Part shown: positions 2,555-33,214 of the stretch, piece after piece
Layout of the letters: every line of letters starts with the position of its first letter
How positions within the stretch are numbered: the stretch's first letter is position 1
From: a virus
Virus genome (UHGV): UHGV-0106174
Strand: one strand, 5' to 3'
DNA length: 33,264 nucleotides
Notes under the pieces: generated by a model
Told to the model about the DNA's origin: nothing
The model's database searches: none
Seen by the model: only the letters and a program-made list of their open reading frames with translations
Translations under genes and position numbers: made by a program

Positions 2555-5982
<3,428 letters not shown>

Positions 5983-6019
5983 GAATGAACCACTATTTGA
6001 ACTGTCTTTATGTGGTAGT

Positions 6020-11002
<4,983 letters not shown>

Positions 11003-11067
11003 TGGATTAATTCCTTATAGTGAAACGGGGGAATAGATCCCCCAAGTAAAAGTATTTATAATTATAA

Positions 11068-11526
11068 TTATTCTACTAGACCAGTAGCTAGTGGACCGCC
11101 GTCTACTGATAACACAAATTCCCTCACCACTACCGCGTCTTTATCGCCACCAGTGGTAGAAGAAGAAATAAATGCATTATAAATTGCATAGTAACCTTCG
11201 TCATGTGTACCGTCGGTGTAATATGTGATCTTGAACTGTGCACGTTTTTGATCTTCGGCTAGTGCAAGTAGTTTTGTATGTACTGCGTTATCTGGTAGAT
11301 AGTTTACAGTTAGTGGGATATCTGGTACTGATTTAGTACCAAGTAGTTTACGGTTGTAAGCACTATTAAAAGTGACTACATCAATTACTACGCTTTCTGC
11401 ACCCATAGTTGGGAATGCACCTAGTTCTGGGATAATTTCGAAATCAGTTGCAGGAGTGGTAGAACCTGCGGTATATGTGCCAACTTCAACGGTGACGTTA
11501 GCACCAGCAAAAATATCAAATGCCAT
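11068..11526 (-). CDS. Major tail (tube) protein
   Basis: 152-aa ORF directly upstream of G/GT; strong AAGGAAA-type SD context; no in-frame CGG. Confidence 0.65.
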   Translation of the reverse strand: MAFDIFAGANVTVEVGTYTAGSTTPATDFEIIPELGAFPTMGAESVVIDVVTFNSAYNRKLLGTKSVPDIPLTVNYLPDNAVHTKLLALAEDQKRAQFKITYYTDGTHDEGYYAIYNAFISSSTTGGDKDAVVVREFVLSVDGGPLATGLVE

Positions 11527-11602
11527 TTTTTATTTCCTTATATAGATTTAAGTTATTAAGTGAACAGGTACATATATATATCATGTACCCGTGTATATTT
11601 AT

Positions 11603-15484
<3,882 letters not shown>

Positions 15485-19697: not shown

Positions 19698-21668
19698 TTA
19701 ACGTTTGAAATAGTTCTTACCAGTACTCTTAGTTTGTACAAAACCAAACTTCTTACGTGCATGCACTGGTTGTTCTATATATTTATCTTCATCTATATTT
19801 ACTTCTGAAGTATCTATATCTTTTTTATCTTCTATCTTTTTGCGTTGATTTGCATCATATATACGTAGTTCGGCAAATGGATTATTACCTAATGTACTTA
19901 AACGCCACTCAATTGCTACTAAAGCATACGCAAGACAATCTAACATTTCGTTACGGTCTAGATTGCTCTTACTCTTTTTCTCCCATACATAGCGACCACC
20001 TTTGAATACTCGTTTCTCACTGGTCAACTGAATGAAATAATCGTCGGGTAGATTACCACTGAAATAGATATTAGTACCGAATGATCCGGCTTCATCATGT
20101 ATTGCCTGTTGTACTAACTTCATAATTGTATTTTTACTTTCACAACTATTAAGTATGATTAGTTCTTTACCACCAGCTTTACTTTTCTTGAATAACTCCT
20201 GTGTACCATTACCTTTAATTGGTCTTAGTAGTTTCTCGCCATATGCATTGTACTTATTACAGATACGATAGATTGTATGTGTAGCGTTACCGTTACCTGA
20301 GTCTATGAAGTTACCAAAATTACGTAATGGCTTACCTGATACAGTCTTGAATGGATACTTTAGATAACGTGCCAATTCTTCATATGCTGGTGATTCTACT
20401 TTAGTAGTATCTACGGCACTGAATATACGATGATCTAATACATAAACCTTCTTCTTATTGTCAGTAATACCTAATGTAGTAGTCTCGATCCTATCTAATT
20501 GTTGATCGCTGCCTGTGAAAATTCCGGATAACATCATCGGGGATATTTTTAATATCAAAATCAAAATCTCTTAGGTTCTCTAAAATAGTTAAATCGATTT
20601 GTTTATTTGCTTCATCTTCATATGGTAAACCGTAATGATGTATTATAAAAAGTTTGAAGGTCAAAGTTTGCAAAGCTATCACTAAAATCTTGTACAATCT
20701 TTTCGATAGTAGTTAGTGGACTGTAAAGACGTGATATATGGAAGCCTGCATAGTCTGTTACTTCGGGACGTGTCGCAATCCATCGCCCATTAGCTACGGC
20801 AGTATGTCGTTGTGCTTCGGTGAATGGTTTATCACACTTAGGACAATGCAGTTTTGCACCCTTTGATACGGCAATCTTCTTACCGTTCTTAGGATCTACA
20901 GTCCAGGTGAATCGAACGTTAGCCCATACAATTTCATGTTCATGTTTACAGTGTGGACACGGTACAAAATACTTACGCTGATCACTCTTAGACCATTCAA
21001 CCATTACGGGATCTGTTGGATGTACTGGCGTTGATGCACTCATAATCAGACTATCGGCAAACGATGCACCGACGCTGATTAGCCAGTGCAATCGGATCGC
21101 CCTCATCAGTTTCTACTGCTCCCGATATCTCATCGAGGAATAGATACTTTGTAGTGACACTACGTAGCGTAGCTGGTGCACCCAACGAGGCAAAGTAAAT
21201 CATAGTACCATCTTTCATCTCGATCTGGTTCTGGTCGTTCACGGCGTTCTTATCGGTCTTGCGTGTCACTAAATTATCTAGTACTGAACACTGTTTGATA
21301 CCTTGTTCAAATACACCCGTTTTATATTTCTTCTTCATCTCACCAGTGATTGAAGCATGTAACATATTCGATGGGTTATTATGCATCAGATAGTAAGATG
21401 CATATGTCAGTATTGAAGTCTTGAGGATCTGAGCACTAGAAACAAATACCGTTTTACGGATACTTGGATTAACAATTATATCGAGGGGATCGCGTTGGAA
21501 GGGAAATAAGCGTACGGGACTTCCATTCATTGGCCCCGACACGAATTTAATATTCTCTTCGGTCCATTCACTCGGAAGGATCTTGCGAGGCGGAATTATC
21601 GCCTGATTCGCCTGATTGAATATCTTCGTTAGTTTCGTTGTTAAATCGTTCTTCATATTTGAAATCAC
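19698..21668 (-). CDS. Terminase large subunit (lambda gpA-like), three CGGN recoding sites
   Basis: Segments 21051..21668 (ATPase-like N-terminus, LFLDEIS Walker-B-like), 20618..21106 (CPHC...CPKC zinc motif as in gpA), 20491..20697 and 19698..20564 (nuclease-like C-terminus, GSDQQLDRIE). Each successive segment is +1 shifted at an in-frame CGG (21069, 20630, 20524). True start near 21668 is uncertain because of a 100-nt overlap with TerS. Confidence 0.8.
20523..20526 (-). other. CGGA recoding site (TerL)
   Basis: ..PDDVI CGG A; +1 frame continues GIFTGSDQQLDRIE... Confidence 0.55.
20629..20632 (-). other. CGGT recoding site (TerL)
   Basis: ..FYNTSL CGG T; +1 frame continues GLPYEDEANKQIDL (compare lambda NTTLGETWEAK). 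Confidence 0.55.
21068..21071 (-). other. CGGT recoding site (TerL)
   Basis: ..ALANQR CGG T; +1 frame continues GASFADSLIMSASTPVHP... Confidence 0.55.
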
Positions 21669-22253: not shown

Positions 22254-22781
22254 ATGAACAATAATCTTATCCAGACTATTATCCGTGAATGCTATAGAAT
22301 CGAAGAAGATGCATTATTTTCTTCAAAATCACATTATAATGTCTCTGATAGATGGGATAAATTGAATATGTGGTTTGGAGTGCCTTTAGCTATACTAACG
22401 GCATTAAGTGGAGTTGCTGCGATAAAAAGCTCTACCAACGCAGTAATTTTAATTTCTATAGTTTCCACAACTCTAACTGCTTTGAATACCTCATTAAATC
22501 CTAGCAAACGTGCGGCTCTTCATAAATCATCCGCCAATGAATATAATAAGTTAAAAAATGAAGTTAGAATTTTTAGAGAACTATTAATTTCTAATTATGA
22601 TTTCACTGATGATGATACTAATATTGATCAAGTATTAGTTGAAAAACTCACTATATATTCTGATCGACGCAATCAGCTCAATGCAAGCTCTCCAAATATT
22701 CCGCGATGGGCTTACAAAAAAACGCAACATGACGTTAATCAAGGCTTTACTAATTATAATATTGACAAGGAGAAATCATGA
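22254..22781 (+). CDS. Two-transmembrane-helix protein, SLATT-like candidate effector
   Basis: 175 aa; soluble N-terminal segment, two hydrophobic helices (FGVPLAILTALSGVAAI and AVILISIVSTTLTALNTSL) separated by a short loop, then a ~80-aa polar tail. Architecture matches SLATT-type membrane effectors that pair with SMODS nucleotidyltransferases. Stop overlaps the next start (ATGA). Confidence 0.45.
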   Translation: MNNNLIQTIIRECYRIEEDALFSSKSHYNVSDRWDKLNMWFGVPLAILTALSGVAAIKSSTNAVILISIVSTTLTALNTSLNPSKRAALHKSSANEYNKLKNEVRIFRELLISNYDFTDDDTNIDQVLVEKLTIYSDRRNQLNASSPNIPRWAYKKTQHDVNQGFTNYNIDKEKS

Positions 22782-23554
22782 CTGTCAGTACATATTTAGA
22801 ATCAATCAAAAATAAAGCATATCAAAAAGATATTACAATAACTAATTCAATCAACACGATAAAAAGACGGCTTGACTATTTCTTCTCAAGTGAAATAAAA
22901 GAACATTTTGTTTTTGGCTCATATTCAAGAAATACGATGTTACCAAGAAGTTATGATCGTTTTTCTGATGTTGATTATATGATTGTATTTAAAAATGTAA
23001 TACATCAGCCACAAACTTATCTAAACAAATTAAAAAAGTTTGTAAACTTTTATTATAGCACATCAGAAATCAAACAAAGTCATCCTACAATTCAGTTAAA
23101 TTTAAACCATATTACTTTTGAACTTGTCCCCGCTTCACATAGTATTTTTTATGGTTATCAAATCCCTTCAAAAGATGACTTATTAGGACGTTGGATGCAA
23201 ACAGATCCTTTAGACTTTAACATGCAATTAACCAACTGCAATAAAAACAACAAATCATTGATTAAACCTCTTATTAGAATCATGAAATATTGGAATGCTA
23301 ACTCTGGTTACGTATTTGAATCATATCAATTAGAAAAGAAAATTGTTTCATTTAATTATTTCTGGTGTTCAACACTTAAAGAATATTTTTACTCTGCTGT
23401 AGAGCAACTTTCAGCACCATATGAATTTGCTTACTGGAAAAAGCTAAAGATACAAAAACTTAAAGATTCCGTAAAGCTAGCAAAATATTACGAAACGATA
23501 GACTGTCCTTTCTCTGCTGAAAAAGAAATAAAAAGTATCTTACCAGAGATATAA
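22778..23554 (+). CDS. Nucleotidyltransferase (pol-beta superfamily, SMODS/cGAS-DncV-like minimal fold)
   Basis: 258 aa; motif FVFGSYSRNT...(x)...SDVDYMIVF is the hG[GS]...DxD nucleotidyltransferase signature, with a downstream hEh (FELVP) candidate third acidic residue. Strong AAGGAG SD. Contains an in-frame CGG at 22868-22870 translated as Arg (IKRRLDYFF) with no frame break. Confidence 0.6.
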   Translation: MTVSTYLESIKNKAYQKDITITNSINTIKRRLDYFFSSEIKEHFVFGSYSRNTMLPRSYDRFSDVDYMIVFKNVIHQPQTYLNKLKKFVNFYYSTSEIKQSHPTIQLNLNHITFELVPASHSIFYGYQIPSKDDLLGRWMQTDPLDFNMQLTNCNKNNKSLIKPLIRIMKYWNANSGYVFESYQLEKKIVSFNYFWCSTLKEYFYSAVEQLSAPYEFAYWKKLKIQKLKDSVKLAKYYETIDCPFSAEKEIKSILPEI

Positions 23555-23571
23555 CCTTCTAATTAATTATT

Positions 23572-23638
23572 ATCGATTGTTTGCAATAAGTGAAGCTCAT
23601 CATTCACATATATACAAACAATCGATTTTTATTATTTT
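23572..23638 (+). terminator. Rho-independent terminator after the nucleotidyltransferase gene
   Basis: Perfect 12-bp inverted repeat ATCGATTGTTTG ... CAAACAATCGAT (23572-23583 and 23615-23626) followed by TTTTTATTATTTT. Confidence 0.5.
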
Positions 23639-23746
23639 GGTATTGATTATAAAATTAACAATACGAACAAGTCCAACTAGCCAACCGCCAACTCACTTGA
23701 TTTATTAAAATTAACATTAATTGCACTCTCTCATCTTTTATTGTGA

Positions 23747-24475
23747 TTAGCTCTTTTTAATTAGTTCTCTTAAATCTTCTATTGAACGTACATCCATACC
23801 AATATGTATCATTACATGACAATTTGCACATAATGGGATAAGATCCTTTACCGGATCAACTTTATATCGTTTAGCAATCTTATGTAAAGGTTTTATATGG
23901 TGAACTTGAATATAGTTTTTGCCTAACTTTCCATATGTTTTTTCAAAATTAAAACCACACACCTGACATGTATAACCATGAGCTTCTATACAAGCTTGTC
24001 TTGCTTTAGGATCACGTTCATAGTAGGTTATTCGCCTTTCTTGTTGTTCACCTTCATAATACTCCTTATCCACATTAGGCGTATATGAATAGTATTCTTC
24101 ATCAGTAGCGTACCAATCACCATTGATTTTCGTTAGATATTTACGCACTATCTTTTTTTCAAAATCTTTGATTTTAGCTGCACCGCTTGATGTTTTTCTT
24201 TCGTCTCTTACTTGGCAAAACGTATATAAGTTATAACCTTCATACAAAATTTTGTTTATATGCTCAATCGATTGACTATATCCGCTTTTTTTGCGTCCTT
24301 GTTCGTTTTCCTTCCACTTATGTGATAAAATCAAGACGCTTTTACCATCAATAGATTTGAGATCTTCCCATGCACCAAATATAATTCTTTTGTTCGTTTC
24401 ATCAATAAACGACCAACTCCAACTATAATTTTTACATGTTGCACCTAATGAACGTAGAAACTCAGTTCTGGACAT
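23747..24475 (-). CDS. HNH endonuclease, McrA-like C-terminal domain with an uncharacterised N-terminal domain
   Basis: C-terminus ERDPKARQACIEAHGYTCQVCG...IQVHHIKPL...LIPLCANCHVMIH matches the HNH/McrA motif layout (RDP, CxxC, HH, CxNCH). Probable start is the ATG at 24473-24475 (MSRTEF...) with a GAGGA SD; the track ORF begins at an upstream GTG. Confidence 0.65.
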   Translation of the reverse strand: MSRTEFLRSLGATCKNYSWSWSFIDETNKRIIFGAWEDLKSIDGKSVLILSHKWKENEQGRKKSGYSQSIEHINKILYEGYNLYTFCQVRDERKTSSGAAKIKDFEKKIVRKYLTKINGDWYATDEEYYSYTPNVDKEYYEGEQQERRITYYERDPKARQACIEAHGYTCQVCGFNFEKTYGKLGKNYIQVHHIKPLHKIAKRYKVDPVKDLIPLCANCHVMIHIGMDVRSIEDLRELIKKS

Positions 24476-24626
24476 ATTATATTCATCCTCTAACACTTCC
24501 TTTCATATATAATCATACTACATTTCGAAATATATTTCATACTAAAAAGATGATCCTTGCCATAAGAGATTAACTTAATAAAATCTATATTTTCTAAATA
24601 TCGATTGCGATTTTTACATCTTCCCA

Positions 24627-24762: not shown

Positions 24763-25131
24763 ATGAAAAAATTAATCATTGCCTCTATCTTAGCTGCTTC
24801 TTGCAATGCTAATGCAGCATCACGTGAGCTTCTTAATATGGTAGATCCGATTGAAAATTATTTAATCATAAATGGTAAAGCCTCTGGTAAGGAGGCACAT
24901 TATACCGCTTACCGTTTAGCAGATGAATTAGCCTCGGTTTTCGATAAGAATATGGTCGAAGTATTAAACGAAGGAATAAATTGTAGTACAATTGTACAAA
25001 AAACAAGCCCCCTCCCAGTACATATGTTTCCTGTTGATGACAATAATAAAGTAGCTAAAATTAATCGTAAAAAGATTGAAAAAGCAATTATCCACTATGT
25101 AGAAACTAGATGTCAGGAATTATCAGAGTAA
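24763..25131 (+). CDS. Secreted protein or lipoprotein (possible superinfection-exclusion function)
   Basis: N-terminal signal peptide MKKLIIASILAASCNANAAS with a Cys in lipobox-like context; accessory-region location. Function is speculation. Confidence 0.4.
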   Translation: MKKLIIASILAASCNANAASRELLNMVDPIENYLIINGKASGKEAHYTAYRLADELASVFDKNMVEVLNEGINCSTIVQKTSPLPVHMFPVDDNNKVAKINRKKIEKAIIHYVETRCQELSE

Positions 25132-25202
25132 AATGTCACATTCATAAATTACATTTATTACATATGGCTACGATTATAACAAATATCATTCACAGGTACA
25201 TA

Positions 25203-25409
25203 ATGAAATCATTACTATTAAAATACGAAAAAGTGCTAATTGATATTTCAGCAGTTGCTTCGGTAGCTATCATCGGTACTTATTATGAGTCAGATCACCC
25301 TTCTGCCTTACATGAAGTTTTTTCTGTAATATCAGTTGGCGTTTTGTTCTACGCTGCAAAACGTTATATATCACCAGTTATTTCAAAATATACCCCATGG
25401 AAAAAATAA
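25203..25409 (+). CDS. Small membrane protein (two predicted TM helices)
   Basis: Internal ATG at 25203 (MKSLLLKYEKV...); hydrophobic segments ISAVASVAIIGTYY and VFSVISVGVLFYAA. The upstream part of the track ORF (from 25110) overlaps the previous gene. Confidence 0.35.
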   Translation: MKSLLLKYEKVLIDISAVASVAIIGTYYESDHPSALHEVFSVISVGVLFYAAKRYISPVISKYTPWKK

Positions 25410-26997: not shown

Positions 26998-27210
26998 TCT
27001 CTAGTCTATTATATAAGAACGATAGATAAAAGATGCGTCGTCGCTAGTACACTAACAACATCTTAGTGCTTTGAATTTACGTTGAAAATCGACATAGAGT
27101 TTACTCATCGGTTCCACTTCAATTTCTTCTTTTTGTAACGCATCTTTTATTTATTATATAAGATCTATAGATACGACTTGCGTTACAACTTTATCAAAAG
27201 AGATGCGTTT
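26998..27210. repeat. Cluster of ACGCATCT/AGATGCGT repeats with two ~50-bp direct repeat units; putative origin or operator array
   Basis: Inverted repeat GCGACGCATCT (27000-27010) ... AGATGCGTCG (27041-27050) around an AT-rich spacer containing TATTATATAAGA; a second unit ACGCATCT...TATTATATAAGA...ATAGATA...TGCGT at 27138-27186. Further ACGCATCT/AGATGCGT copies occur inside the helicase gene 3-prime end near 27200-27208, 27354-27362 and 27400-27412. Confidence 0.45.
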
Positions 27211-30030
27211 GAATGTCAAACCAGTTAGACTCAATGCTTCGATTGGGTAACCACGACTAACATCACCATTAACACGACTTGTTGTAGACTTACCCAATTT
27301 GATGTATTGATTGAGTACATCACGTACTTTCTTAGTCTTGACTTTCACAATCAGCGACGCATCTTTAGTTATATTATTAAGATCATTAACTACGACTTGC
27401 GTCGCTGCATCGACTAAAACAACCGATTTAGACCAGCTACGTGATTTTACCATTTGTTTAACATCACCATCGAAGTATTGATTTAGAATAAAATCGACAA
27501 CTTCATTTGCAATATCTTCTGCTTCACTATTCACGATGAATGATTTAGTACCGACATGTTTACGAATCAATTCGAGAGCATCACAACCTTTTACAAAACG
27601 TTCTTGATCGATGTATGCCTTACGTGGCAATTCATCATCTTCTTTCAAACCTTCGACGAATGGGACGAGTTGGTCGCGTTGTAGACCTTTATCGAGTAAT
27701 TTGCCGATAGAAGTCAGTGTAGCATCATAAACACCATCTTTAGTATCTTCATCTACGGTATTGTTGATTAGGTCGTTCTTGAGCTTCTCAAGCGATTCTA
27801 CGCGTGCTTTAGCTTTCTCTTCTTTGATTGCTTTTACACATTGATTTATTTCTTTTTGTTTATCTTCATCACCATCGGCAACACATGGACTGTACACATT
27901 GAAATCGAATTCTTTCATAGCCATTGCAAATAGTGAAAAATCATTTTCGTACATACTTACACGATATTCACTATGTTCGAAATCGATACCAGTATAAGAA
28001 AGATGAAAATCGTTGTTATGGAAGTAAATCAAATCTTTACTCATTTCACCGCGATATTGACTAATGAAACGTTCACCATTAGTACATTTTGCATATACCG
28101 ATTTAATTGCATCGACAAACATCAAACCATCATTGATTACATCTTGAGTACTGTAAACGTCCATTACTTTAACTTGTTTACGGTCAACCAAAATCCAAAC
28201 GCGTTTTTCGGTAGTTACATTACGGAAACGGTTTGTAACTTGTTCGATACGTGCAACATCCATTTCACCCCAGACAAATACATCTACGGTGTCTTCGATA
28301 TCATTGATGTTTAGACCTTCGACAATACTGTTAGTACCGATCAGTACTTCATACTCGCCCATCAATTCAGTTTGTAGGAAGTGTTGAACTTCTGGTTTGT
28401 TGATTGTATCGGCAGTAATAACGAGACATTTGCGATTAATACGATTAACCATCTCACTAATGAGATCTTTATTGTTAACGAGAACAATACTGCGAACATT
28501 ACTTTCATTGATAGAATCAATTAGTACATCATCCTTACTTTTACAAAATACAGTACGCAAAGATTTAGTAGCTTGTAGTTTTTTAACGATACGATAAACA
28601 CGGTCAAATTTAATGTTACTGAAATATTCTGGTTTAACCGTACCACTCATTAGTACTACACCTTTGAAGTATTTAAATGAATCGATTAGTTTGTTGATTG
28701 TACCATTCTTAAAACCATAATCTGAATATAGGCCATGTGCTTCATCGATAACAAGTACTTTATCTTTAAACTTACTTTTATCTTTTTCGCGAACGATAGA
28801 TTTAATTTGGTTCCAAGTACCGATACCATCGTCTAGACTGTTTTTAGTATTCCCACCACTGAATACAATTGCACGTAGTGGTGCTAGGAATACATACTTA
28901 CCTTCATGTTTTGGTTCTTTAAAGTATGCACTCTTCCCTGCTGCTGGATCTGCATTGATAAGTGTAATACCTTCATCTAGGATCATATCATCGGCATAAT
29001 CGCTGAGATGTTCACCTTTGTTTTCGATACCATTGACAAATTGATTTGGCTTTAGAGTCCATACGGCATCGTAGACGCTCTTTTTTTCGAAACCTCTATC
29101 GGACTTCATAGTACGCACTAGACGACGTTCTAATGCAGTAATACGCATACCTTTGGGGATGTGCTTATATAGACCTTCGACGTTTGCATAGAGCGAATTA
29201 GCCCCCTTAACGATATCATAGTTAGAACGACCAGCACCCGGACGTTGAACACGGTCAAGTACTTGAACGATATCGAAATCGTTCATACCAACAAGCTTAA
29301 GACGGTTAGCGAGTAGGCGACGTTCTTCATAACTAAGTTGACCACTTTGATGATCGATAATCGCCGCACCCAATTCTGCCAATTCTTCATTGGTGAATAC
29401 GGCATCTTCATAAACGATATTTGCCGTAATAGTTTCTAGACTGATATTCTCGACAAATGGTAAATCTTCTTGATTGGTATAATCGAACCAAATACCTTTA
29501 TTATGTTCAACTACAAACTTATCTTCGAATGCAGTATTAATAACTGGTAGGTATTGAATCTGGATACCTTTCTTAAATGATTGGTCAGAGTATGGGAAAC
29601 GTTCAGTTAGTGAAGTATTGTAACGACTCCATTCAGATGCATCCATCGGTGTATTTAATGGAATAACTACGCGAAAACGATCACCATTTTTAAGTCCAGT
29701 AGAACCACTTGAGTACATTACATATTCATATTTGTTCAAATCTTGACGTACTTGATCATAGCTAGCACCATCATCAACATCGAGAACGATTGCATAAAAA
29801 CGTAGAACGTTATTAGCAGTACGTGGTGCATTCTTACGCATTTCGGCAACGACAAATGCATCGAAGTTAATTTTGCATTTTTCATATTTTTCTTTATCAT
29901 CAGCATAGAAAGACAACCATTGAGATTTGTCAGTAAGCATTTCTACTAATTCGGACCATTCACCTTCGAGGTGAGTAACGCCATTATCTTTACTACTGAA
30001 GCGGTTTTGGTAGTGTGTATATTTTAACAT
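27154..30030 (-). CDS. Replication protein: N-terminal primase-polymerase-like domain fused to an SF2-type (DEAH) helicase
   Basis: 958-aa uninterrupted ORF; Walker A INADPAAGKSAYF and Walker B VLVIDEAHGLY; N-terminal LDVDDG acidic motif typical of primase-polymerase-type enzymes. No in-frame CGG codon found in a scan of the gene. Confidence 0.55.
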   Translation of the reverse strand: MLKYTHYQNRFSSKDNGVTHLEGEWSELVEMLTDKSQWLSFYADDKEKYEKCKINFDAFVVAEMRKNAPRTANNVLRFYAIVLDVDDGASYDQVRQDLNKYEYVMYSSGSTGLKNGDRFRVVIPLNTPMDASEWSRYNTSLTERFPYSDQSFKKGIQIQYLPVINTAFEDKFVVEHNKGIWFDYTNQEDLPFVENISLETITANIVYEDAVFTNEELAELGAAIIDHQSGQLSYEERRLLANRLKLVGMNDFDIVQVLDRVQRPGAGRSNYDIVKGANSLYANVEGLYKHIPKGMRITALERRLVRTMKSDRGFEKKSVYDAVWTLKPNQFVNGIENKGEHLSDYADDMILDEGITLINADPAAGKSAYFKEPKHEGKYVFLAPLRAIVFSGGNTKNSLDDGIGTWNQIKSIVREKDKSKFKDKVLVIDEAHGLYSDYGFKNGTINKLIDSFKYFKGVVLMSGTVKPEYFSNIKFDRVYRIVKKLQATKSLRTVFCKSKDDVLIDSINESNVRSIVLVNNKDLISEMVNRINRKCLVITADTINKPEVQHFLQTELMGEYEVLIGTNSIVEGLNINDIEDTVDVFVWGEMDVARIEQVTNRFRNVTTEKRVWILVDRKQVKVMDVYSTQDVINDGLMFVDAIKSVYAKCTNGERFISQYRGEMSKDLIYFHNNDFHLSYTGIDFEHSEYRVSMYENDFSLFAMAMKEFDFNVYSPCVADGDEDKQKEINQCVKAIKEEKAKARVESLEKLKNDLINNTVDEDTKDGVYDATLTSIGKLLDKGLQRDQLVPFVEGLKEDDELPRKAYIDQERFVKGCDALELIRKHVGTKSFIVNSEAEDIANEVVDFILNQYFDGDVKQMVKSRSWSKSVVLVDAATQVVVNDLNNITKDASLIVKVKTKKVRDVLNQYIKLGKSTTSRVNGDVSRGYPIEALSLTGLTFKRISFDKVVTQVVSIDLI

Positions 30031-30649: not shown

Positions 30650-32486
<1,837 letters not shown>

Positions 32487-32545
32487 TTACTTACCTCCAT
32501 TAACTGTGGTGTACATCATATCATAACTGTTCATTGCTGCTGATG
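32487..32545. other. Prophage-host junction (attachment site region for the serine integrase)
   Basis: AT-rich phage DNA including the integrase SD ends here and GC-rich host coding sequence begins; the host reading frame is open from 32504. The exact crossover dinucleotide cannot be identified without the other junction. Confidence 0.5.
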
Positions 32546-33214
32546 GGGCCGCAGTGGCGTTCGCGTCTCGATCGTGAAGCCAGCCTGCTGGGTCACAGTG
32601 GTTGCCGTATTGGCGGTAACGATCTGGACATCGCACTGGCGTTTAAAAACCTGATGCCGTTACTGGGCATGGGTGGCGAAACCGAAAAAGGCATCGCCCT
32701 GCCGATTCTGCCGTGGTGGAATGCGGTTGCCATCAACGACGTACCTGCGCAGAGTGATTTCTACAGTAGTGCCAACGGTCGTCTGCTTAACGATCTGGTA
32801 CGCGATGCCCGCGAACCGGAAAAAGTGGCCCTGCTACAGAAAGTCTGGCGTCAGCGTTTAAGCTATCGCCTGGTGCGTAGCGCAGAAGAGAGCAAAATTG
32901 CTCTTTCCAGCACTGCGGAAACCCGCGCCTCACTGCCGTTTATCAGCGATGAACTGGCTACGCTGATTAGCCAGCAAGGGCTGGAAAGCGCCCTCAGCCA
33001 GCCACTGGCGCGGATTCTGGAACAGGTGCAACTGGCCCTGGATAACGCCCAGGAAAAACCGGACGTTATCTACCTGACCGGCGGTAGCGCCCGTTCTCCG
33101 CTGATTAAAAAAGCGCTGGCAGAACAGTTGCCGGGCATTCCGATTGCAGGCGGCGATGACTTTGGCTCCGTCACCGCCGGGCTGGCTCGCTGGGCGGAAG
33201 TGGTATTTCGTTAA
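32528..33214 (+). CDS. yegD: Hsp70-family protein YegD-like, C-terminal portion only (gene interrupted by the prophage)
   Basis: GC-rich ORF ending ...YLTGGSARSPLIKKALAEQLPGIPIAGGDDFGSVTAGLARWAEVVFR*, the conserved C-terminal actin-like ATPase subdomain of DnaK/YegD-type proteins. No plausible N-terminal domain is present upstream. Symbol assigned from memory of the E. coli protein. Confidence 0.7.
   Translation, partial: CSLLLMGPQWRSRLDREASLLGHSGCRIGGNDLDIALAFKNLMPLLGMGGETEKGIALPILPWWNAVAINDVPAQSDFYSSANGRLLNDLVRDAREPEKVALLQKVWRQRLSYRLVRSAEESKIALSSTAETRASLPFISDELATLISQQGLESALSQPLARILEQVQLALDNAQEKPDVIYLTGGSARSPLIKKALAEQLPGIPIAGGDDFGSVTAGLARWAEVVFR

Follow-up and report, generated by a model that had tools for sequence, protein, structure and literature searches.

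The UHGV virus genome UHGV-0106174 (33,264 nucleotides; this whole stretch is referred to below as the window) carries on its minus strand a gene whose product ends in an HNH nuclease domain and begins with a domain that sequence libraries do not place. What such a protein recognizes, and what role it plays inside a prophage next to a known type of defence system, is the question raised by this locus. We favour, with moderate confidence, a solitary modification-dependent (type IV-like) nuclease equipped with a putative new sensor domain. The gene is real, since full-length homologues that are 39-100% identical to its product were found in many phyla; a homology search returned 88 full-length homologues. 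The protein is identical to the RefSeq entry WP_047654908.1 ("HNH endonuclease") from Escherichia coli PSJ-42, and the chromosome of this strain contains the 3-kb region including the gene at 100% identity.

The nuclease part is the easiest to assign. Pfam HNH (PF01844) matches residues 170-224 (35.7 bits for a cut-off of 21.4), EcoKMcrA gives the best match among PDB sequences, through its HNH region (6ghc; aa 145-232, E = 1.5e-5), followed by weaker matches to ScoMcrA and TagI, and the fold of the domain is similar to that of solved McrA-type HNH domains. The four ligands of the Cys4 zinc site (C170, C173, C216 and C219) and the catalytic residues (H192-H193, encoded by nt 23897-23902, N218, H220 and H224) are invariant in 50 full-length homologues and align with the EcoKMcrA motif. 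A first-pass annotation, made from the sequence alone, had placed a McrA-type HNH at the C-terminus, and these matches and invariant ligands bear it out. The domain is thus of the McrA type and looks catalytically competent. Its closest relatives that share only the HNH part are about 50% identical in this part; the front ends of the closest HNH modules show weak (sub-threshold) EVE matches, DUF3427, DUF7669 or an unknown region.

The same annotation had been unable to place the N-terminal ~160 aa. The lack of placement stands, as no sequence library that we tried gave a match, but the size does not: the AlphaFold2 model divides the protein into an N-terminal domain of 125 aa (residues 1-125, hereafter N-domain), a linker modelled with low confidence (about 126-153) and, at the C-terminus, the HNH domain (about 154-242). 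Residues 134-153 have a predicted local distance difference test score (pLDDT) below 50; the alignment of the 50 homologues nevertheless includes two invariant columns in the linker, E141 and G142. Modelled alone, the N-domain forms two helices and seven strands with a pLDDT of 91 and a predicted template modelling score of 0.84. The strings SWSWSF and IFGAWEDL, which had been singled out from the sequence, do occur in the protein and belong to the part that is best conserved across the family. The invariant residues of the N-domain in the 50 homologues are mostly aromatic (F6, W21, F33, W36 and W54), besides G11 and S20. There is no conserved acidic or lysine triad, so the N-domain is not an active PD-(D/E)XK site. 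Pfam, NCBIfam and PADLOC contain no match to it at E <= 1, PHROGs only a chance-level match (E = 0.094), and PDB sequences were not matched either by the single sequence or by a profile. This putative sensor domain therefore appears to be uncatalogued, judging from these library searches. At the level of structure, Foldseek returned no PDB match at E <= 0.001; the best matches were AbaSI (E = 0.044, template modelling score normalized to the query of 0.40) and Hjc (E = 0.07), and similarity to the SRA fold (PUA superfamily) reached only grey-zone scores. We conclude that the N-domain forms a sequence family of its own, with a fold that is probably, albeit not securely, SRA/PUA-like.

The strongest functional clue to the role of the N-domain is its modularity. 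An exhaustive profile search with this domain retrieved 332 representative proteins, including 99 at E < 1e-30. The top 150 of them comprise 61 proteins shorter than 170 aa, 56 of 170-280 aa and 33 longer than 280 aa, and the CxxC..HH..CxxCH motif is found in 49 of these 150. According to Pfam scans, the N-domain is followed directly by HNH in 46 members, but it is also combined with known readers of modified bases: EVE-N-domain-HNH (P0126 and P0180), N-domain-EVE-HNH (P0182), EVE-N-domain devoid of a Pfam HNH match (P0159) and N-domain-SRA-HNH (P0257, whose SRA matches that of TagI at E = 2e-37). Other members associate it with other domains, namely N-domain-DUF3427-NOV_C (P0161), N-domain-NOV_C (P0144 and P0194; NOV_C is a PD-(D/E)XK domain) and N-domain-MUG113 (P0181). 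In being swapped among nuclease domains and found in tandem with modified-base readers, the N-domain resembles the sensors with which modification-dependent restriction enzymes are built.

It should also be mentioned that one locus (L096, positions 5001-6740) carries a stand-alone N-domain gene of 132 aa, followed by two overlapping genes. Among the candidate defence families of PADLOC, the latter match PDC-M09A (E = 5e-11) and PDC-M72B (E = 8e-30), which suggests that the N-domain can also serve as an independent component of a system made of several genes.

The distribution of the family is wide and scattered. A scan of one genome per species detected 585 relatives, and full-length relatives with 39-47% identity are patchily distributed over about ten phyla, including Proteobacteria, Verrucomicrobia, Planctomycetes, Bacteroidota, Chlorobi, Acidobacteria, Gemmatimonadetes and Chloroflexi. 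Their genomic settings, several of which are mobile elements or regions rich in defence genes, are equally varied. The relative from Yersinia lies in a region resembling an integrative and conjugative element (ICE), between a PilS-type pilin gene and MobA and about 4.5 kb from genes encoding DarT and an ADP-ribosylglycohydrolase (DarTG-like). The one from Pseudomonas putida adjoins Gabija-like genes (OLD-TOPRIM ATPase and UvrD helicase) and a GmrSD_N fragment, the one from Photobacterium is a chromosomal gene standing by itself, another from a metagenomic contig belongs to an island with umuDC-like genes, and those of related prophages accompany a serine recombinase and a GpA terminase. Relatives of about 44.5% identity were found in 103 plasmid records, largely from Klebsiella and Enterobacter; the two plasmids that we inspected are conjugative IncFII plasmids carrying the gene a few kb downstream of repA. 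A variant that is 81% identical to the HNH gene is present in 53 complete genomes of E. coli, including O111:H- 11128. In this strain, the one whose context we inspected, it is carried by a 9-kb islet between ldtB and ybiT (L014, positions 5147-13028). This islet also encodes two recombinases (one of them a serine recombinase), a helix-turn-helix protein and a methyltransferase that is considered below. Sequenced phages gave no megablast match to the region and only partial tblastn matches, none of them covering at least 80% of the query.

To survey neighbours, all open reading frames (ORFs) located within 5 kb of the gene were clustered over 45 loci. No conserved neighbour family emerged: the commonest neighbours are a serine recombinase (5/45), terS (4/45) and terL (3/45), all from one prophage lineage. 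This context survey thus reveals a solitary, mobile and horizontally scattered gene, as type IV enzymes typically are.

Taken together, the protein resembles type IV enzymes in that a separate putative sensor domain is fused to a nuclease, with no cognate methyltransferase or immunity partner shared among the neighbours at the 45 loci. In the mechanism that we propose, the N-domain would recognize some feature by which foreign DNA differs, a modified base being the likeliest candidate. W21, W36 and W54 might form an aromatic pocket that holds this base, possibly after flipping. The HNH domains would then dimerize and cut nearby DNA, by analogy with EcoKMcrA and TagI. Host DNA, lacking the recognized mark, would be spared, so that no methyltransferase or immunity gene would be needed. 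The gene would be a cargo of the prophage that shields the lysogen from other phages or incoming DNA, apart from the adjacent cyclic oligonucleotide-based antiphage signalling system (CBASS). Since a Dcm+ and Dam+ state is usual in E. coli and Klebsiella, sites methylated by Dcm or Dam are unlikely to be the target.

Several observations weigh against this proposal. The N-domain lacks the 'YDG' motif of SRA domains. The first-pass annotation had considered that the N-terminal region may read modified DNA and had named SRA and EVE among the reader domains to look for; profile searches lend no support to these two readers, with no Pfam match and hhalign probabilities of about 0.1% between the N-domain profile and those of SRA (0.08%), EVE (0.06%) and the DUF3427 region (0.11%), although these negatives are weak given the thin target profiles (one to four sequences). 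Two architectures, VWA-N-domain (P0183) and N-domain-glycosyltransferase (P0216), are unlike a nuclease coupled to a sensor. PADLOC 2.0 includes no model for the family beyond a marginal match of the HNH region to mREase_IV (E = 0.0011), and our literature search, including one by accession numbers, found no published phenotype or paper on the family. Finally, in four prophages that are related to one another (that of the window and L009, L011 and L015), the gene has the orientation of the phage backbone and lies upstream of terS and terL as the last gene ahead of them, which leaves room for a role in the phage life cycle.

This last arrangement would suit a terminase-associated packaging nuclease similar to gp74 of HK97, or an enzyme degrading host DNA. 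Yet packaging HNH proteins are small, single-domain proteins, and the conserved adjacency to terminase and portal genes that characterizes HK97 gp74-like proteins is not found here: a terminase is nearby in only 4 of the 45 loci and absent from about 90% of them, and the family also occurs on IncFII plasmids, in the ICE-like region and in chromosomal islands. Moreover, in the window, the lambda GpA-type terminase has its own nuclease domain and the HNH gene is separated from terS by a CBASS operon that lies on the opposite strand; we hold a function in the phage life cycle to be very improbable. A selfish, homing-type enzyme is hardly better placed. It would be a free-standing HNH whose N-domain is a sequence-specific DNA-binding module promoting the spread of its own gene, in keeping with the patchiness of the family across phyla and mobile elements and with the matches of the C-terminal region to PHROG families annotated generically as 'HNH endonuclease'. 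However, the catalytic module is of the McrA type and C-terminal, the gene lies outside any intron, intein or conserved target gene, its flanks differ at nearly every locus, and the N-domain occurs in fusions with other nuclease families as well and beside modified-base readers. Homology to HNH homing enzymes of introns, which had been envisaged as a finding that would overturn the initial proposal, was not found, and we consider this explanation very unlikely.

A different trigger for a defence nuclease deserves more weight, even if we judge it unlikely. The protein could be an effector that responds to a nucleotide signal, to some protein of the phage or to DNA of unusual structure and could degrade DNA in the course of abortive infection; in one version, it would be a second, Cap5-like effector of the adjacent CBASS. 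Cap5 is a SAVED-HNH effector, whereas no similarity to SAVED or CARF was found for the N-domain (Pfam and PADLOC searches also returned no SAVED), and the tandem fusions with EVE, SRA and DUF3427 point instead to DNA sensing. As for the CBASS version, the system of the window already has its own two-transmembrane (2TM) effector, a cyclase neighbour is absent from all 44 other loci, and both units are found apart in complete genomes of E. coli: about 88 carry the CBASS pair (~77% identity) but no HNH match, a count inferred from identity bands, while the 53 genomes with the HNH variant are devoid of CBASS. The least probable explanation, which we regard as remote, is a type II-like nuclease that cuts at a specific sequence, with its protective methyltransferase encoded at a different place. 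It could draw on the islet of E. coli O111:H- 11128, where a methyltransferase-like ORF (Pfam N6_N4_Mtase) lies within 5 kb of the gene, and on another locus (L029), where an ORF recognized as methyltransferase-like from its motif only is directly downstream. Nevertheless, methyltransferase-like motifs were found in at most 9 of the 45 loci and belong to no family common to these loci, the window has no methyltransferase near the gene, and the methyltransferase of the islet is paired convergently with a different ORF of 298 aa, with which it forms a putative type II restriction-modification system.

Sensing of modified DNA through a dedicated domain, which we favour, can be compared with several known enzymes. 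EVE-HNH proteins (VcaM4I/TspA15I) and the EVE-DUF3427-PD-(D/E)XK protein YenY4I are modification-dependent (Lutz et al. 2019, PMC6765204). They follow the same logic of a sensor plus a nuclease: relatives of the present protein combine the N-domain with EVE and HNH, and the N-domain-DUF3427-NOV_C relative mirrors the layout of YenY4I. In contrast, neither Pfam nor hhalign detected an EVE or DUF3427 sensor in the HNH protein itself. The protein likewise differs from ScoMcrA and the SRA-HNH enzymes (TagI and ScoA3IV/Sco5333) by the absence of any SAD_SRA signal (no Pfam match at E <= 1), and its N-domain (125 aa) is shorter than SRA domains (~150-200 aa); the tandem architectures described above are nonetheless comparable to the SBD-SRA-HNH organization of ScoMcrA. 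EcoKMcrA, an HNH endonuclease that depends on 5-methylcytosine (5mC) or 5-hydroxymethylcytosine (5hmC), is itself encoded by a prophage, e14. Its N-terminal specificity domain, NEco, was not recognized in the HNH protein. Three other candidates were rejected: YenY4I, which is a 595-aa protein with the domain content given above, EcoBLMcrX, which is not an HNH enzyme, and the END nucleases (iEndoIII sensors), which are unrelated.

It is conceivable, although we put this forward only tentatively, that the N-domain represents an undescribed family of nucleic-acid sensors with a specificity unlike that of SRA, EVE, DUF3427, SBD and winged-helix readers. Such a domain could recognize, for instance, a base that is hypermodified and distinct from 5mC and 5hmC, or a feature of invading DNA that is not a base. 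If this holds true, the family would be a new and widespread class of type IV-like nucleases, spanning 332 representative clusters, about ten phyla and the plasmids and prophages of Enterobacteriaceae. The association of a reader with an HNH nuclease is already well established, so that the family would be an extension rather than a new principle. If the N-domain is a modification sensor, it would add to the small set made of SRA, EVE, DUF3427, SBD, NEco and winged-helix domains, each of which provided enzymes for mapping modifications and explained barriers to phage host range. Carried by plasmids of Klebsiella and Enterobacter and by prophages and islets of E. coli, the family could influence the outcome of phage therapy and plasmid traffic. 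Since PADLOC 2.0 models do not detect it, it also represents a gap in defence catalogues.

The coordinates of the gene, its domains and its neighbours are collected in Table 1. The ORF extends from 24475 to 23750 and its product begins with MSRTEF. An alternative GTG start exists at 24496, 21 nt upstream, and would add seven residues; the MSRTEF start is preferred because all homologues begin with MSR or MNR and RefSeq has the 729-nt version of the coding sequence.

Table 1. Positions, in the window, of the HNH nuclease gene, its domains and the adjacent features.
Feature	Position	Strand	Description
HNH nuclease gene, complete	23747-24475	-	242 aa, two domains; stop codon TAA at 23747-23749
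N-terminal domain	24101-24475	-	aa 1-125; uncatalogued alpha/beta domain; putative DNA or modified-base sensor
Inter-domain linker	24017-24100	-	aa 126-153; low model confidence; contains invariant E141-G142
McrA-type HNH (beta-beta-alpha-Me) nuclease domain	23750-24016	-	aa 154-242
Spacer, AT-rich	23555-23746		192 nt; between the convergent HNH gene and CBASS operon
CBASS CD-NTase, SMODS (neighbour)	22778-23554	+	PADLOC cyclase PDLC00769, E = 1e-109; Pfam SMODS, E = 1e-30
SLATT 2TM CBASS effector (neighbour)	22254-22781	+	PADLOC PDLC00712, E = 7e-67; NCBIfam SLATT_4, 124 bits

The first-pass annotation had described the HNH gene as convergent with a SLATT/nucleotidyltransferase operon and had united the three genes in a small defence-like island inside the prophage. 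Their convergence is confirmed, the HNH gene facing the plus-strand pair across the spacer, where no convincing terminator was found and where a scan for promoters and terminators performed no better than on shuffled sequence. The plus-strand pair, made of a CD-NTase and a transmembrane effector without ancillary genes, corresponds to a type I CBASS, and the image of a defence-like island in an E. coli prophage is accurate as a description. The grouping as a single unit had to be corrected: the whole 3-kb block is found in 10 complete genomes of E. coli, but in most genomes of this species the HNH gene and the CBASS pair are found apart, as reported above. They are independent modules that happen to occupy one hot-spot for cargo, bordered by the early region and the terminase genes. 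The CBASS relatives of roughly 77% identity are located at other chromosomal positions.

The prophage is integrated in yegD, adjoining its serine recombinase gene. Its minus-strand genes encode the serine recombinase, the lambda GpA-type terminase, the portal protein, the HK97 protease/capsid and tail proteins. Its G+C content is about 35% overall (~29-42% across positions 1-32000 of the window), unusually AT-rich for E. coli, and rises to 49% in the host sequence on the right-hand side of the window (32001-33000). Here, the large terminase of the GpA type is broken into three ORFs (19698-21668); GF3-3, an independent strain, has it in two (L095, positions 3700-5657), one for the ATPase part and one for the nuclease part. 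The genes for the portal and the protease/capsid, farther left in the window, are likewise split in the two strains. The prophage may thus be defective while its HNH and CBASS cargo remains intact.

Two other ORFs of the window deserve mention as neighbours of the HNH gene. They are small, lie on the plus strand (24763-25409), opposite to the phage backbone, and encode 122 aa, with a signal-peptide-like N-terminus (MKKLIIASILAASCNANA) and no Pfam match, and 99 aa, respectively; they could be further moron cargo. Farther along, the minus strand encodes a 958-aa protein annotated as hypothetical (27154-30030), whose middle part weakly matches helicase C-terminal and DEAD domains, whose first 400 aa have no assignment, and which is presumably the replication helicase/primase of the prophage.
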